From a virus (taxonomy: Duplodnaviria > Heunggongvirae > Uroviricota > Caudoviricetes), in IMG/VR virus record IMGVR_UViG_3300045988_139913: DNA of 38,677 bases. One strand, given 5' to 3'. This document shows, in pieces, positions 29,353 to 38,677 of the stretch; within the stretch, counting starts at the first letter, position 1, and every line of letters begins with the position of its first letter. Below the pieces are notes generated by a model that had not been told where the DNA came from, ran no database searches, and saw only the letters and a list, made by a program, of their open reading frames with translations. A program made the translations under genes and the position numbers.

Positions 29353-29742
29353 TTACAGAAGTGAGGGCTGGTACTGGCGGTATTTCAGCCGTCGCATCCG
29401 GCGAATGGCCTTGTAAACCGTATTGAAAGTGACACCATAACGGGTGGTCAGTTCGCTGACGTTGCGACCGTTAAAATCATTCCAGATACGCAAATCCCGA
29501 ATCAGCGAGTCCAGAACCTGACCGCGTGGAATGTAGACCTGACCGCCGCCCAGATGCTTACAGATAGCCACAACAATCTCCAGTGAATGGGCAGGATCAA
29601 CACCCAGTCGGGACAATTCCCCGCGTAGTAAATCGTTCAGCTCCGCCAGCAGTGCCGGAAAGCGTGACGTATCCTCTGCGGGATTGTCAAGATGTGCCAG
29701 GATGGTGTCATCCTGCAAATCACCAAATAAATCTTCCGTCAT
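29353..29742 (-). CDS. mor: Middle-operon activator Mor
   Basis: 129 aa; C/Mor family; downstream of gemA as in Mu. Confidence 0.9.
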   Translation of the reverse strand: MTEDLFGDLQDDTILAHLDNPAEDTSRFPALLAELNDLLRGELSRLGVDPAHSLEIVVAICKHLGGGQVYIPRGQVLDSLIRDLRIWNDFNGRNVSELTTRYGVTFNTVYKAIRRMRRLKYRQYQPSLL

Positions 29743-30290
29743 TGTGCCATCCTCCGTGTCTTTCTGGCATGGGCATAAGCCGCCGTCATGGCATCATAGC
29801 CGCGCAGTTCACGACCGGACGGACTGACCGGCAATGGAAGCCCGTGACGGGAAAAGGCTTCACGAATACAGCGGATGTGCCACTGTTTGAGTGTTTCGAG
29901 GACTGTCAGCAGCGTGTCGCCATGACACCACGCCAGTGTGGAAACACCCTGTCCGCCGTTGCGTTTCGCGGTCAGGCGTTGAACATATCTGTCCAGCGCC
30001 ACATCACCGCCATCGGTAATAAAACCGTCTTCTGCCATCTGCTGCCAGATTTTATACACCTTCTCGCGGGGTGTGACATGTTCCTTAAAGCGGCGACGGG
30101 GGTATTTATTCAGCTTCTTAAAGCCGCGTTCTTTCATGGCATCGAGCACCTGTTCCAGTTGCGTAACCGTAAGCTCGCGGCAACTGATTTTGCCCGTTTT
30201 CTGCATCAGAAAAGCGCGGTAAGTGTCGTCGTCGAGTTGTAGCTCCCGACGGGCGACATGGATTAATTTAATCAGGGATGTGCGACTCAT
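29739..30290 (-). CDS. gemA: GemA
   Basis: ORF-track ORF 29739..30533 trimmed to MSRTSLIKLIHVARREL... with GGAGG RBS; upstream extension is low-complexity junk. Confidence 0.8.
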   Translation of the reverse strand: MSRTSLIKLIHVARRELQLDDDTYRAFLMQKTGKISCRELTVTQLEQVLDAMKERGFKKLNKYPRRRFKEHVTPREKVYKIWQQMAEDGFITDGGDVALDRYVQRLTAKRNGGQGVSTLAWCHGDTLLTVLETLKQWHIRCIREAFSRHGLPLPVSPSGRELRGYDAMTAAYAHARKTRRMAQ

Positions 30291-30309
30291 GATCGTACCT
30301 CCGGAAAGA

Positions 30310-30329
30310 GGCGGTGCTGCAACACCGCC
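30310..30329. other. Short hairpin between gemA start and the divergent acidic ORF
   Basis: GGCGGTG-CTGCAA-CACCGCC. Confidence 0.3.
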
Positions 30330-30359
30330 ATATTCAGTAATAACATAAAAGGAAATATT

Positions 30360-30719
30360 ATGGCTGAACAAGAACAACATACGGTGTCGGATGATGAACA
30401 AAACCCAGATTTCGAAACAAACCAGAAAGACACCCCTGTTAATAACCAGGATAAATTCTTTGGTATAACCGGTTTTATGCTGGTCGGTAATCTGATGATT
30501 AAGCTGATTGAAAACGGTGTTATCAACATGCACGATGCTTATGACATCATCAGAAATACACAGGCCAGCTATAAGAACCGAAAAACGTTCGAAGAACTGG
30601 ATTTTGAGGCCGATGAGTATGTTGATCTGCTGCTCAATAAGCTCTGGGCTTCAAGGCAGGATATTGTTAATGCCGGGAACCTCTCATCAGAGCACACAGA
30701 TACTGACGCTGTGGAATAA
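30360..30719 (+). CDS. Opposite-strand acidic protein (119 aa) of unknown function
   Basis: ATG with AAAGGA RBS; highly acidic, hydrophilic product with one hydrophobic stretch; AT-rich codon usage; minus strand of this stretch has no plausible ORF. Confidence 0.5.
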   Translation: MAEQEQHTVSDDEQNPDFETNQKDTPVNNQDKFFGITGFMLVGNLMIKLIENGVINMHDAYDIIRNTQASYKNRKTFEELDFEADEYVDLLLNKLWASRQDIVNAGNLSSEHTDTDAVE

Positions 30720-30972
30720 CCGCTGAATCATCAACGCCAAGCTCACGACAAACAATATTGTTGTGGGCTTTTTTGTTATGCAACAAAACTTCGTCGCGTA
30801 TGAGATGAATTTCCCGTGTCATAATTTCAAGGGCCTCTCTCGCAGAAAAGCCTTTACTGATTGCAGTCTCAATAACATCGCGCATACGCTCAAGCATCTT
30901 AGCTTTCACCAGTTCTTCATCCAGGTCTTTAGGCGTAAATTTAGTTTCATTATTCATATTATTCACCTTCAC
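30667..30972 (-). CDS. Early-region protein (101 aa)
   Basis: In-series with early operon; 3' end overlaps the plus-strand acidic ORF by ~50 nt. Confidence 0.55.
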   Translation of the reverse strand: MKVNNMNNETKFTPKDLDEELVKAKMLERMRDVIETAISKGFSAREALEIMTREIHLIRDEVLLHNKKAHNNIVCRELGVDDSAVIPQRQYLCALMRGSRH

Positions 30973-31141
30973 AATTCATGCACGCCGTGTCATCGCCCAT
31001 ATCGCAGTGGTTGCATTTCTGCCCGCCACAATGAGGGCACTCTTTCAGATATTCAGGAGATTCATTACCGCAGGTCGGGCATTCCTGTTTCACCGTGGTA
31101 AATTTCCCCAGCCACGAATACGATGTTTCATTGTTTTTCAT
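30959..31141 (-). CDS. Small zinc-ribbon protein (60 aa)
   Basis: CPTCG...CPHCGGQKCNHC...CMNCEG; 8 Cys in 60 aa. Confidence 0.55.
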   Translation of the reverse strand: MKNNETSYSWLGKFTTVKQECPTCGNESPEYLKECPHCGGQKCNHCDMGDDTACMNCEGE

Positions 31142-31668
31142 TGTTTTCCATTGTTTACCTCCGCCTGTTTTTGCGCCCGGATAAATTCGTCAGAAAGGAT
31201 TTCAGTCATGCGGCCTTGTGCGGGTGTCATCCCCGTCATGACGTAAATCACATCACCAACACGGAACCACTGGAGCGGCCCGAATATTGTTGCGCTGAAA
31301 TCCAGTCCCAGTGCGGGTAAAAGAGCGTCTGTGCGGGCGTAAGTGACCGGAATATTCTCCTGCCATATTTTCGCCAGCTCTCTTGCCTGCTCCCTGAGAT
31401 GAGCAGGTATCCGTGAAGTTCTGGGCCTGCAACTGTTACCTGATGCGGGCCGTTGTACGGTCCACAGCTCCCGCGAGAAGGGGCGCTCATTCCCCGGAAA
31501 ATTCACGCCATGAAAATGACGCCCACCAATACCTGTGCTGAATACTGACCGGCAACCACAGCCCAGAACCTTATCAAGATGGCGGGCTTCTTCGCGTAGT
31601 TTCAGGCAGTCCGCCATAAACTGGTCCCATGCCAGCAGTGCTGCGGAATTTGACGTTTTAAAAAACAT
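31138..31668 (-). CDS. Early-region protein (176 aa)
   Basis: ORF-track ORF 31138..31707 trimmed to Met overlapping upstream stop. Confidence 0.55.
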   Translation of the reverse strand: MFFKTSNSAALLAWDQFMADCLKLREEARHLDKVLGCGCRSVFSTGIGGRHFHGVNFPGNERPFSRELWTVQRPASGNSCRPRTSRIPAHLREQARELAKIWQENIPVTYARTDALLPALGLDFSATIFGPLQWFRVGDVIYVMTGMTPAQGRMTEILSDEFIRAQKQAEVNNGKQ

Positions 31669-32198
31669 CACGCCACCTCCTGCACCGCTGCGGGAACCGG
31701 AGAACAATCAAGAATGAGATAACGCAGTACATGGTCGGTGATATTCCAGGCGCTTGAACTGCAAATAAAACGCCCCAGCCGGATATCGATATAAGCCATC
31801 ACAAAACGGGGCATACCCTGTTCGCACATGCTGTTGTCCACTTCTGCAACGATGTGAACGGATTCACAGGTCAGTACGCCCGTCGCAAACTCTTTTGCCA
31901 GCGCGGGGATGGTATTACCTTCCACCCAGGGTAATGAGCGACGCCAGTTGCACCACACCGCATCATCAACAGCAGGCTGCTCAGTTACGTTTCGTCTTAC
32001 AGGCGGCGTCGGACGCGGGCGCGGAACGTCATAAAATCCGTTGCATTCGGTGAGCACTCCGGCATCAACTGCATCACGCAGGAAATACACCATTGACGAG
32101 GGCAGCATATTCATTTTTTCAGCCAGAACTCCGCAGGTCAGGCGTCCGTAAGCCCGTAATAATGTGCTGACACCATTCAGAATTTTTGCATCAACCAT
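31668..32198 (-). CDS. Early-region protein with N-terminal winged-helix-like segment (176 aa)
   Basis: Downstream of gam; N-terminal ~60 aa resemble a wHTH. Confidence 0.5.
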   Translation of the reverse strand: MVDAKILNGVSTLLRAYGRLTCGVLAEKMNMLPSSMVYFLRDAVDAGVLTECNGFYDVPRPRPTPPVRRNVTEQPAVDDAVWCNWRRSLPWVEGNTIPALAKEFATGVLTCESVHIVAEVDNSMCEQGMPRFVMAYIDIRLGRFICSSSAWNITDHVLRYLILDCSPVPAAVQEVA

Positions 32199-32296
32199 GT
32201 TTTATTCCTCAGTAATCTGTTTCAGGCGCGAGCAATCCCCTGACGCATCGCGCCATAATTAAAAGAATGTGAATTAATTAAATATTAATGGTGGTA

Positions 32297-32821
32297 TTAA
32301 ATACCGGCTTCCTGTTCAAACGGAATAATGGAAAAATCTTCAATTCCCGATTTAACTGTAATTCCGGCAACACTTGCGACCGCTTTCGGTTCCAGTAAAA
32401 TCGCTTCCTTGTTGATTTCCTGCTTCGTGCGAATAAAGCGTTGCAGGCCAAGACGCTCCAGCGTTTCCATCACTGCATCCATACCACGAATACTTACTGA
32501 GGGTGGACGGACCCGCCACGATACATCACCGGTGACAAGATTCGCCGTCTTCACTTTGCCGCCGTTTGTCAGTTCGTCGCGGTTCGCTTCACACCATCCC
32601 TGAACACCTTTTGAAAGGGTTTCAATATCGGTTTTAATCGGTGCAATCCGGGCTGCAAATTTCTCCGTAATTTCCGCGATGGCATCATTCATTTCCGTTT
32701 CCAGACGTGATGCTTCGCGCTGTAAATCCCCGATGCGTTTAATATCGGTAATCACCGCATCGCGGTTTTGTGGCACATAAGCCGCTGCGGCACTTTTGAT
32801 ACGTTTTGCTGGTTTAGCCAT
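32297..32821 (-). CDS. gam: Gam host-nuclease inhibitor (Ku-like DNA end-binding)
   Basis: 174 aa MAKPAKRIKSAAAAYVPQNRDAVITDIKRIGDLQRE...; matches Mu Gam as I recall it. Confidence 0.9.
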   Translation of the reverse strand: MAKPAKRIKSAAAAYVPQNRDAVITDIKRIGDLQREASRLETEMNDAIAEITEKFAARIAPIKTDIETLSKGVQGWCEANRDELTNGGKVKTANLVTGDVSWRVRPPSVSIRGMDAVMETLERLGLQRFIRTKQEINKEAILLEPKAVASVAGITVKSGIEDFSIIPFEQEAGI

Positions 32822-32840
32822 AAATTAAAGCTCCTGTTAA

Positions 32841-33140
32841 TTAATATCCGCTGTATACAATGCTGGATACAGCCCGATTGCTTAATTCCATCTTTCGGGC
32901 AATGACATGAATATCCAGCCCTTCTTTATAAAGTTCACGACACAAATATTTGTCGTGCTCACTGATTCGGTATACACACAATGATATTCCGTGCCTTCTG
33001 GCATGTGCCCGGAGGGCGGTTGTGGCGACTTTCAGTTTTTCCGCCATTTCTTCAACGGTCATTTTCCCGACGTTGGCTTCGATAAATTCCCGGTCTTCGC
33101 GTGACCAGCGCTTACGATTACACTTCATGTCAGCCACCAT
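32841..33140 (-). CDS. Early-region protein (99 aa)
   Basis: Co-directional ORF in early operon. Confidence 0.55.
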   Translation of the reverse strand: MVADMKCNRKRWSREDREFIEANVGKMTVEEMAEKLKVATTALRAHARRHGISLCVYRISEHDKYLCRELYKEGLDIHVIARKMELSNRAVSSIVYSGY

Positions 33141-33560
33141 TCAGTACAGCAGAGGCTCGCGCAGTGGTGCCGGAATATGTCGCAGCGATAACTGAACCGC
33201 TTTCAGGGCAAGCGAGGAATAACAGCAGCGCGCCCAGCCTTTTGCCATTAACCGGTAATCGCGCCAGATACGCTGCCACATTTCACGGGCTTCAGGGTCT
33301 GATGCGCAGATGTATTCCCGGTCCATGACGTACTCCCATAAATCCACGTTGAACGCACCTCCAAATGCAATGGCGCGGGATATGCTTTCGCCGCAATAAC
33401 GCGCACAGATGCTGTAATGGTCGAAAGCAATCAGGTACGTCTTTTCACCACAATCATCAACTTTCCTGGCGCAAATAAACTCGCGTAATTCACCACCGTT
33501 GTTATTGCGTTCCTGAATTCGGATTAATGCCTGAATTTCATTTCGGATTTTGACGTTCAT
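33141..33560 (-). CDS. Early-region protein (139 aa)
   Basis: Co-directional ORF in early operon. Confidence 0.55.
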   Translation of the reverse strand: MNVKIRNEIQALIRIQERNNNGGELREFICARKVDDCGEKTYLIAFDHYSICARYCGESISRAIAFGGAFNVDLWEYVMDREYICASDPEAREMWQRIWRDYRLMAKGWARCCYSSLALKAVQLSLRHIPAPLREPLLY

Positions 33561-33580
33561 TGTCAGCGTTCCTTTGCGAA

Positions 33581-33850
33581 TTAATGTTTAACCGCATTCA
33601 CCGGATGTGGTACTAAATCACATTCAGCTTCCATACCCACTTTCTTCATAGTGGTCAGCATCTCATCTTTGGCCTTTTTAATAATTTCAGGAGCCATAGT
33701 CAGGACGATATTTGCCAGTAAATCATGAGGCCCGGTATTTTCCGTTGGCGAGATATCTGCAAGACATGCTTTTGCATCCAGAACTTCTCTGCGCCCATTG
33801 CAACCGTCACTACTTTCCAGCCATGTAAACTCAAAGATAACCTTTGCCAT
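33581..33850 (-). CDS. Early-region protein (89 aa)
   Basis: Co-directional ORF in early operon. Confidence 0.5.
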   Translation of the reverse strand: MAKVIFEFTWLESSDGCNGRREVLDAKACLADISPTENTGPHDLLANIVLTMAPEIIKKAKDEMLTTMKKVGMEAECDLVPHPVNAVKH

Positions 33851-33861
33851 TTTGTTTCTCC

Positions 33862-34092
33862 TTATTGATTCTGAATAACTGCGCTGGCTTTTACCTTCGC
33901 GCCTTTTACCTGCTTAAAGAAAACCGCGCTGCACCACGGACAACATGTCAGGGAATCCCGAATTTCCTTTTCGGGTGAGCATTGCGTCATAATCTGTTCA
34001 CCACATCCGGGGCATTTATATGTCGTCAGCGGCAACCCGTGGCACTGACAGTGTTTAACCCATTCAATATATTTTTCAGCTTTAATACACAT
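33862..34092 (-). CDS. Small zinc-ribbon protein (76 aa)
   Basis: ORF-track ORF 33862..34116 trimmed to ATG with GGAG RBS; CQCHG...CPGCG...CCPWC motifs. Confidence 0.55.
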   Translation of the reverse strand: MCIKAEKYIEWVKHCQCHGLPLTTYKCPGCGEQIMTQCSPEKEIRDSLTCCPWCSAVFFKQVKGAKVKASAVIQNQ

Positions 34093-34094
34093 CG

Positions 34095-34322
34095 TTATCT
34101 CCAGATAATCTGGCAACCATTAAGACGGGCCGTCCATACAGAACGGGCCACCCCGGACTTATGCTCCATAATTCTGACCGCGTTTTTTACCAGTTCCACC
34201 GGTGGGTAAGTGATTTCAAGAATCGGACGCGCCACGCCGAGATATGATTCATTTACATGACTCCCGCGCGCCTGTAACCAGTTCTGCGCATCCGTTGCCA
34301 TTTTTATATTTCGGGCCATCAT
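34095..34322 (-). CDS. Small protein in Mu kil position (75 aa)
   Basis: First ORF after B, AAGGAG RBS; assignment as Kil is positional only. Confidence 0.55.
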
Positions 34323-34337
34323 AATTTCTTCTCCTTC

Positions 34338-35276
34338 TTAATTACGCAGCAGCGTTGAAATATCAACGTCCAGGTCTAATTCACGGAAAGCCTGACGCAG
34401 ATAATCTTCGTTAACACGCTCACCTTTACCGTGAGCCGTCATGGCGGCAAGGCGAAGTGAATGATTCAGAATGCGAAGCGCACCTGGTTTCTGCGCAATC
34501 TGCTGTAATAACTCCAGTTCTTTTTCGCCGTTAATCTGCCAGGCATCCGCAATAGCTTTTACATCGGCTTTTTTGGTTTTATTAATTGCAGTGCGCTTTG
34601 CAATACGGGAAAACAGACGGGCAAATTCAACCGTTCTGTTACCCCCCGTCATATTTGAATAAACCCGGTGATTTCCCATCAGCACAAGGCCAATACGGGT
34701 TGATTCCTGTAACAGGCGGAGTTCTTCCAGAACTTCGGCACCAAGATGATCAGCTTCGTCGATGATAACCAGCCCCTGTGTACCTTCAAGGCGACGTCGC
34801 AGGGCGCGGGAGAGCGGCCCTTTACGGCGTGGTGCGTCATTCATTCCCAGCTCAAACGCCAGTTCAGTAAGACATTCCAGAACGCTGGCACAGGATGGCG
34901 TAATGGTGATCATCCAGACATTGTTATTGGTGCGGCGATATTCACGGGCCGCTTCGGTTTTGCCCACACCAGGATTGCCACATACAACAGCAATACTTTC
35001 AGTCAGGCTGGCAAAACGCATACTTGTCCAGATTTGTTTTACCGTCTGCGTTTCCACAAAGCGGGGCGGTTCAGGTAGTTCTGCAACTGCATGATATTTT
35101 TCCAGCCAGCGTTGCAGCATTTGTGAAACACGCTCGTTATCCCCGTTGTACTTATCATTGATAAAACTACTGATAGTTCCGGTAGAAAGTCCGCTCTCAA
35201 GAGCAATTTGTTTAAAGGTGGTTTCTTCATTTTCTACAAGCGTGCGCAGTCCTGCGCGAATATCGGAAATATTCAT
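34338..35276 (-). CDS. B: Transposition ATPase/target DNA activator MuB
   Basis: 312 aa; Walker A GNPGVGKT; N-terminus MNISDIRAGLRTLVENEE as Mu B. Confidence 0.95.
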   Translation of the reverse strand: MNISDIRAGLRTLVENEETTFKQIALESGLSTGTISSFINDKYNGDNERVSQMLQRWLEKYHAVAELPEPPRFVETQTVKQIWTSMRFASLTESIAVVCGNPGVGKTEAAREYRRTNNNVWMITITPSCASVLECLTELAFELGMNDAPRRKGPLSRALRRRLEGTQGLVIIDEADHLGAEVLEELRLLQESTRIGLVLMGNHRVYSNMTGGNRTVEFARLFSRIAKRTAINKTKKADVKAIADAWQINGEKELELLQQIAQKPGALRILNHSLRLAAMTAHGKGERVNEDYLRQAFRELDLDVDISTLLRN

Positions 35277-38581: not shown

Positions 38582-38586
38582 CCCGC
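38582..38586. repeat. Target-site duplication CCCGC (left-end side of prophage)
   Basis: Identical to 1600..1604. Confidence 0.8.
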
Positions 38587-38677
38587 GCATTCGAGGATAT
38601 GAATCCGGTTGAAGGGCTGGACGAGATGCTGGTAAGCGTGAATGCTGCTAACCCGGCAGGAGATTTTAAGCCCCCAA
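38582..38677 (+). pseudogene. Portal gene of flanking phage, continuation 3' of the insertion (runs off window)
   Basis: After removing one TSD copy the frame continues ...NEAR-AFEDMNPVEGLDEMLVSVNAANPAGDFKPP. Confidence 0.6.

Follow-up and report, generated by a model that had tools for sequence, protein, structure and literature searches.

We analysed a 38,677-nucleotide (nt) stretch of viral DNA (IMG/VR record IMGVR_UViG_3300045988_139913; the window, below) and examined the genes that lie between B and gemA of a Mu-like transposable phage. We observed ten small minus-strand genes there, which follow A and B. In every feature assessed, the interval is the semi-essential early (SE/SEE) region of a transposable phage of the Mu/D108 type. 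This cluster is already known, and our observation is a re-sighting of a textbook region and not a discovery. We count it as known because the Mu left-end record M64097 (1991) already carries its genes as E5-E15, the Mu genome renames them gp6-gp14, and an identical genome has been deposited. The genes and features of the interval are listed from B to gemA (aa, amino acids):

34338-35276, minus strand: B, the upstream flank of the array
34095-34322, minus strand: kil (Mu gp5), 75 aa; host-killing, septation-inhibiting early protein
33862-34092, minus strand: gp6 (E5), 76 aa; predicted four-Cys zinc ribbon
33581-33850, minus strand: gp7 (E6), 89 aa; hypervariable allele
33141-33560, minus strand: gp8 (E7), 139 aa; very narrow family
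32841-33140, minus strand: gp9 (E8), 99 aa; helix-turn-helix (HTH), probable DNA binder
32297-32821, minus strand: gam (gp10), 174 aa; DNA-end-binding host nuclease inhibitor
31668-32198, minus strand: gp11 (old E10-E12), 176 aa; winged-helix-like N-terminus, variable Pro-rich linker and Gp11_C domain
31138-31668, minus strand: gp12 (E13), 176 aa; predicted phage-specific alpha/beta fold; its start overlaps the gp11 stop
30959-31141, minus strand: gp13 (E14), 60 aa, acidic; eight Cys as four CxxC
30667-30957, minus strand: gp14 (E15), 96 aa; D108-type allele
30739-30770, plus strand: intrinsic-terminator-like hairpin, a 13-bp stem followed by a TTTTTGTT U-run
30360-30719, plus strand: gp15-like antisense gene, 119 aa, acidic; between gp14 and gemA
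29739-30290, minus strand: gemA, the downstream flank of the array

We first identified the element from its core genes. MuA (DDE_2 and Mu HTH domains), MuB (Phage-MuB_C and AAA domains), Gam, GemA and Mor all scored above their Pfam cutoffs on the minus strand. Because A, B, gam, gemA and mor share this strand, we read the whole early region as minus-strand. The array lies between B and gemA/mor, runs in the same direction as A and B, contains both kil and gam, and matches Mu gp5-gp14 gene for gene (tblastn against Mu and D108, together with the annotation tables). An earlier note on this DNA had placed about ten co-directional open reading frames (ORFs) between B and gemA and had assigned them to the semi-essential early region of a Mu-like phage. 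Both statements were borne out: the coordinates hold, including those of the three ORFs that it singled out, and the core Pfam domains flank and punctuate the array.

Positions 30500-34400 were 100% identical at the nucleotide level to LR595867 (Escherichia virus Mu_3F6). The full segment aligned to D108 at 94.9% identity, and 82% of it aligned to Mu at 97.4%. Related prophages were present in 97 of 5,426 complete E. coli genomes. With the exception of gp7, the proteins showed 98-100% aa identity to the closer of Mu and D108. The earlier note had proposed a comparison to Mu and D108 to find ORFs that are unique to this element. In that comparison, each ORF corresponded in both position and sequence to a gene annotated in Mu or D108. 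The gp7 allele alone departs from the two phages, and it recurs in other contigs.

The ten genes are tightly packed. Spacing between ORFs was −4 to +20 nt across the array, except for 98 nt after gam, and a Shine-Dalgarno sequence preceded most starts. The 98-nt segment (32199-32296, minus strand), between gam and gp11, is the sole sizeable intergenic gap of the array; it is AT-rich, and a GGCGCG...CGCGCC hairpin comes after it. A promoter within the array or a site of RNA processing could lie in this gap. A consensus promoter scan of this gap gave no match, and an Rfam scan of the whole window gave none either.

We assessed coding constraint as pN/pS, using Nei-Gojobori counts against other alleles. 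Nine genes had usable alleles and gp14 had none. The values for these nine genes were 0.07-0.42 (the gp7 value comes from only 5 differences), which indicates that the array ORFs are genes under purifying selection and not chance ORFs. One alternative is that some of the small ORFs are chance frames or relics in a transcribed spacer. They are indeed short (60-99 aa), most have no annotated domain, and many alternative ORFs overlap them on both strands. However, the annotated frames carry more synonymous than non-synonymous changes, and conservation of the families reaches down to 30-55% identity, with Cys and motif columns that do not vary. A PHROG family for each ORF (E ≤ 1e-35; 6.9e-29 for the gp9 match given below), the Shine-Dalgarno sites and the tight packing also argue against spurious frames, and we regard this alternative as extremely improbable.

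Two of the ten genes have known functions. The earlier note had found only gam recognisable; this overlooked the ORF at 34095-34322, which is kil. Its product matched PHROG 2743 ('Kil protein for bacterial septation inhibition', E = 2.8e-43), was 100% identical in aa sequence to the Kil proteins of Mu and D108, and is annotated as such in the LR595867, D108 and Mu records. Gam matched Phage_Mu_Gam (PF07352; 143.9 bits, cutoff 28.3 bits) and showed 99.4% aa identity to both Mu and D108. In the literature on Mu, Kil kills the host or blocks septation, and Gam binds the ends of DNA and shields them from host nucleases; the latter protein is a Ku orthologue (PMC3820752). The earlier note would have given up its reading if all ORFs were conserved one-for-one with Mu early genes of known function. 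Half of this holds: the one-for-one conservation is there, but the known functions are confined to kil and gam.

Published work describes the Mu SE region in similar terms. It comprises 14 orfs, only some of which have a phenotype or function (PMC3325207), and its functions are largely unknown (PMC3820752), in agreement with the earlier statement that most of the ORFs have no assigned function. Plaque formation does not require the region, which lies on the early Pe transcript (PMC3820752, PMC3325207), a long transcript driven by Pe (PMC3820752). The region is nevertheless harmful to the host; when it was deleted, host viability and the recovery of lysogens returned to 100% after MuBam infection (PMC3325207). 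Two genetically defined SE-region functions act in replication, immunity and regulation: arm, for amplified replication, and cim, for the control of immunity (PMC4553209). The literature that we searched contained no functional study of gp6-gp9 or gp11-gp15 and no ORF assignment for arm or cim.

We scanned the ten ORFs and the antisense ORF against Pfam, NCBIfam, PHROG and PADLOC. In Pfam and NCBIfam, nothing scored above cutoff except Kil, Gam and Gp11_C; all zinc-ribbon, HTH and Lar matches fell below it. Every ORF had a PHROG family, and all of these families are labelled 'unknown function' except those of Kil and gp9. PADLOC-DB returned only a marginal HTH match for gp9 (E = 0.0099) and nothing for the other nine proteins. 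We queried the PDB with the single proteins gp8, gp9, gp11 and gp12 and with profiles of gp7, gp11, gp12, gp13, gp14 and gp15. These sequence and profile searches found nothing significant for gp7, gp8, gp9, gp11, gp12, gp13, gp14 or the antisense family. Kyte-Doolittle analysis in 19-residue windows found none with a mean above 1.5, and thus no transmembrane-grade segment in the array proteins. One very narrow family was that of gp8 (99% aa identity to D108, 95% to Mu; pN/pS 0.12), which had no Pfam, NCBIfam or PDB match. An exhaustive HMMER search of 1.84 billion proteins with gp8 returned only 10 representatives, all of them short or close relatives.

We next assessed the Cys-rich proteins gp6 and gp13, which the earlier note had called zinc ribbons. 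Cys makes up 9 of 76 residues in gp6 (11.8%) and 8 of 60 in gp13 (13.3%), compared to 0.6-5% in the other ORFs. The Cys richness and the conservation of the CxxC Cys stood in both proteins; membership in a curated zinc-ribbon family did not, with all scores below cutoff.

gp6 showed 98.7% aa identity to Mu gp6 and 94.7% to D108 gp6. Its CPGC (residues 26-29) and CPWC (residues 51-54) form two CxxC knuckles about 20 residues apart. They contain the only Cys conserved in full-length homologues (alleles at 76% identity and a Kluyvera copy at 33%); the other five Cys are lost. Because only this CPxC...CPxC quartet persists across divergent homologues, the Cys richness of gp6 is not due to chance. 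As a sequence pattern, the quartet is the signature of a four-Cys zinc ribbon. gp6 scored below the curated cutoffs of FmdB (TIGR02605; 18.6 vs 31.3 bits), ECs_2282 (NF047912; 16.8 vs 37 bits) and Zn_ribbon_ACC (15 vs 24.5 bits). It shares with the FmdB and ECs_2282 ribbons the arrangement of CPxC, ~21 residues and CPxC, which is a motif resemblance and not family membership. gp6 belongs to PHROG 3786 ('unknown function') and had a pN/pS of 0.42. Homologues at 28-39% identity are hypothetical genes in unrelated non-Mu phages of Serratia and Pseudomonas, and an organism tally adds Salmonella and Chivirus records.

gp13 showed 98% aa identity to D108 and 95% to Mu and has an isoelectric point (pI) of 4.8. 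Its four CxxC repeats read CPTCGNES, CPHCGGQK, CNHCDMGD and CMNCEGE. Of the eight Cys, six never vary among the homologues found and two hardly vary, so that here too the Cys richness is not a matter of chance. gp13 presumably binds two zinc ions. Like the Cys-rich domain of DnaJ and the zinc fingers of YacG and RadA, it has four close CxxC, two of them CxxCG, that could hold two zinc ions. Unlike the DnaJ domain, it is a free-standing 60-aa acidic protein and not part of a chaperone. Its score against DnaJ_CXXCXGXG (PF00684) was below threshold (19.2 bits, cutoff 32.7 bits). PDB profile matches to YacG (a gyrase inhibitor) and RadA were rejected as generic CxxC knuckles (E = 0.1-0.16, not significant). 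The match to the Lar restriction alleviation family (TIGR03655) reached 14.7 bits with a cutoff of 39.6 bits, and no stretch passed alone.

The 40-residue Cys core of gp13 was 86-92% identical in most loci (L082-L121) of clades in which gp12 was 52-67% and gp14 53-58% identical. This constraint is unusually strong for a 60-aa accessory protein. A gp13 homologue in Klebsiella phage Kpn BU9 (47% identity) adjoins genes for an exonuclease, an annealing protein (SSAP) and a polymerase. gp6 and gp13 would be zinc-stabilised mini-domains that most likely bind a partner protein or nucleic acid and do not act as enzymes.

Two further proteins are candidate DNA binders. gp9 (100% aa identity to D108, 99% to Mu) matched PHROG 323 ('transcriptional regulator, D5-like', E = 6.9e-29) and gave several sub-threshold HTH matches in Pfam and NCBIfam over residues 9-62 and 55-95. 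It probably binds DNA, judging from these HTH matches. An internal HTH repeat was considered, and none was detectable by BLAST. The LR595867 record labels this 99-aa HTH protein 'COG1209: dTDP-glucose pyrophosphorylase', a label that no family scan backs. gp11 matched Gp11_C (PF25754) over residues 90-167 (137.1 bits, cutoff 27 bits; E = 2.5e-40). Its N-terminus was modelled as winged-helix-like, with MarR/ArsR-type winged HTH proteins as the comparison, and on this model gp11 is probably, though tentatively, a DNA binder as well. gp12 is predicted to fold confidently and has no solved structural relative.

We then compared the genes around gp11 and gp12 in 69 enterobacterial viral contigs collected with a gp12 profile. 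These loci fall into three clades whose B proteins are ~48% identical. gp11 and gp12 co-occurred in 68 of the 69 loci, and they abutted with overlapping stop and start codons in all 11 loci inspected, which span the three clades. gp11 is acidic (pI 5.4) and gp12 is basic (pI 9.3). The two look like a two-protein unit. A second adjacent pair, gp13-gp14, was present in only some genomes. gp14 (PHROG 6075, 'unknown function') lies closely behind gp13 in the inspected loci of other clades. By adjacency and co-occurrence, gp11-gp12 and gp13-gp14 each look like a coupled pair, and both pairs probably work as complexes. A gp12-gp13 fusion, hinted at by a 231-position PHROG profile, was rejected: the homologues are 42-70 aa long, and inserted genes part gp13 from gp12 in other clades.

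These observations bear on the possibility that the uncharacterised ORFs, especially gp11-gp12 and gp9, are arm and cim and act on Mu DNA or the transposition machinery instead of the host. arm and cim are listed as SE functions (PMC4553209), and the literature searched assigns neither to an ORF. The HTH of gp9 and the winged-helix-like N-terminus of gp11 would suit such a role. The persistence of the gp11-gp12 pair across the three clades also indicates that it travels with the replication core and is not swapped. Against this, gp11 and gp12 were absent from the Mu-like phages sampled outside the Enterobacteriaceae (apart from a weak gp11 in Kluyvera), which still transpose. The gp11 model has low confidence, and we found no mapping of arm or cim to these coordinates. 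We consider a purely phage-internal role possible and somewhat less likely than not to be correct.

The proposal that we favour and consider probable is a polycistronic accessory array that works early in lytic growth. Based on the Mu literature, the array would be transcribed from Pe in the long early transcript during the first minutes of lytic growth. Kil would stop division and Gam would shield DNA ends. The eight uncharacterised products may be small cytoplasmic proteins, soluble and able to bind nucleic acids or other proteins. Their task would be to tune host DNA metabolism and the cell cycle, and perhaps also the replication and immunity of Mu.

Several points weigh against this proposal. 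gp6, gp7, gp8, gp12, gp13 and gp14 had no above-threshold functional match or PDB relative, by sequence or by fold. Zinc binding by gp6 and gp13 is a prediction. The DNA-binding assignment of gp11 is tentative because its structure model is poor (predicted local distance difference test, pLDDT, 57). Transcription and translational coupling of the array are suggested by gene spacing together with published Mu work, and complex formation by gp11-gp12 and gp13-gp14 by adjacency and co-occurrence. The identity and order of the genes, their coding constraint and their mosaicism were observed directly; we infer the individual activities of the products and their assembly into complexes.

We also compared the array to Mu and D108 in 100-nt sliding windows. 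Two replacement islands stood out, at 33543-33850 (gp7) and at 30288-30942 (gp14 and the antisense gene, of D108 type); the rest was 92-100% identical. In both islands the replaced gene keeps its first 7-9 codons, a pattern that suggests recombination at conserved gene starts. gp7 is a divergent allele of the Mu and D108 gene: it shared 40% identity with the D108 copy and 28% with that of Mu, and all three proteins begin with MAKVI(F/I)E. The gp7 allele of the window (PHROG 2230, 'unknown function') has copies at 99-100% identity in several IMG/VR contigs. gp14 was 99% identical to its D108 counterpart; the Mu protein, at 35-38% identity, has the same first 9 residues. gp7 and gp14/gp15 thus appear to be variable slots replaced as cassettes.

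The earlier ORF list lacked the plus-strand ORF at 30360-30719, which fills the 376-nt minus-strand gap between the last ORF of the array and gemA. This gp15-like ORF converges on gp14 with a 53-nt overlap, is preceded by the Shine-Dalgarno sequence aaaaggaaatattATG, and belongs to PHROG 38610. It is annotated in LR595867; the DNA is 100% identical in D108 but is unannotated there. It is the positional counterpart of Mu gp15 and only 23% identical to it (119 vs 88 aa). In distant enterobacterial clades of Mu-like phages, antisense homologues are present at the equivalent position (loci L075, L099, L108 and L121). The terminator-like hairpin at 30739-30770 begins 20 nt past the gp15-like stop codon, inside the gp14 coding sequence. 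Its RNA folds at −21.1 kcal/mol (z = −4.2), and 0 of 200 shuffled sequences were as stable. Expression of the gp15-like gene in the lysogen is conceivable, since its direction is opposite to that of the repressed early operon. A sigma-70 promoter scan showed no excess over shuffled sequence and identified no promoter for the antisense gene. A second hairpin, at 30310-30329, is a perfect 7-bp GC-rich one without a T-run (GGCGGTG-CTGCAA-CACCGCC). On the early strand it directly precedes the gemA ribosome-binding site, and on the opposite strand the start of the antisense gene.

We assessed the distribution of the array beyond its closest relatives. In 47 Gam-encoding loci from other bacteria (Kluyvera, Gilliamella, Gallionella, Haemophilus and others), gam was essentially the only one of the ten SE genes that recurred, together with the flanking genes gemA, mor and B. 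kil was found in a few of these loci, and gp6 and gp11 were faint and in Kluyvera only. Among the 69 enterobacterial viral loci, kil, gp6 and gp8 were essentially confined to the Mu/D108 clade, and gp7 and gp9 had only a few weak matches elsewhere. The array is lineage-restricted, accessory and mosaic.

A distribution of this kind would also fit an anti-defence cluster, in which one or more of the uncharacterised ORFs inhibit restriction, RecBCD-linked systems, CBASS or retrons, as Gam neutralises nucleases. Replacement of gp7 and gp14/gp15 as cassettes within near-identical flanks is a pattern frequent in arms-race genes. The products are small, gp13 is acidic (pI 4.8), and the neighbouring gam is annotated as a host nuclease inhibitor. 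The homologues of gp6 (in Serratia and Pseudomonas) and gp13 (in Klebsiella) are small hypothetical genes in unrelated phages. However, in the Pfam, NCBIfam, PHROG and PADLOC scans and the PDB searches we found no similarity to characterised restriction-alleviation or anti-defence proteins, with Lar, YacG and RadA all failing as described above, and the literature search gave no relevant result. Moreover, gp8, gp9, gp11, gp12 and the gp13 core are conserved and not diversifying (pN/pS 0.12-0.30). The anti-defence idea is speculation, and we think it unlikely. The earlier note had pointed to host manipulation in general, and the recovery of viability upon deletion of the region (PMC3325207) agrees with that broader claim; its anti-defence part found no support.

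Because eight separate genes are concerned, the anti-defence and phage-internal explanations are compatible with each other and with the proposal that we favour. Taken jointly, gp11-gp12 might be arm/cim or a new hijacker of a host factor, the gp7 and gp14 plus gp15-like slots might be arms-race loci, and the gp13 core might contact an invariant host target. We give this combination a low chance of being right in full. There is modest upside should gp11-gp12, the frozen gp13 core or the variable slots prove to have a specific target. The eight genes without a known function pose a real but old question, which the window makes no more testable than Mu itself does. What our analysis adds is that gp11-gp12 and gp13-gp14 are conserved pairs, that gp12 has a predicted fold without a solved relative, that gp7 and gp14/gp15 are replaceable slots, and that a conserved antisense gene is missing from the D108 annotation.

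The window also contains DNA outside the Mu homology. Mu-homologous DNA spans positions ~1605 to 38581 of the window. The 1.6 kb on the right-end side (positions 1-1604) are E. coli DNA from another prophage, at 99.8% identity, and include portal and terminase genes. A further 96 nt (38582-38677), on the left-end side, extend past the Mu homology. The flank sizes and the 38.7-kb total fit headful-packaged Mu virion DNA, or Mu inserted in a resident prophage.

Comparison with the three reference phages places the array among known systems. In Mu (NC_000929, Mup05-Mup15), the genes have the same position, order and orientation as in the window. Eight of the ten genes (kil, gp6, gp8, gp9, gam, gp11, gp12 and gp13) show 95-100% aa identity to Mu. 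Mu differs in gp7 (28%), in gp14 (35-38%) and in gp15, which has 88 aa compared to 119 aa. In D108 (NC_013594, kil and 6-14), gp8, gp9, gp13, gp14 and the antisense ORF are 98-100% identical to the window. D108 differs in gp7, at only 40%, and the antisense ORF is not in the annotation of the record. The N-terminus and linker of gp11 in the window are of Mu type, with 80-87% nucleotide identity to D108 across 31843-32142. In the LR595867 record of Mu_3F6, the gp14 position has no annotation and the automatic names are uninformative. Over 30500-34400, Mu_3F6 shows no difference from the window, and the same ORFs are called there, including the one on the plus strand.

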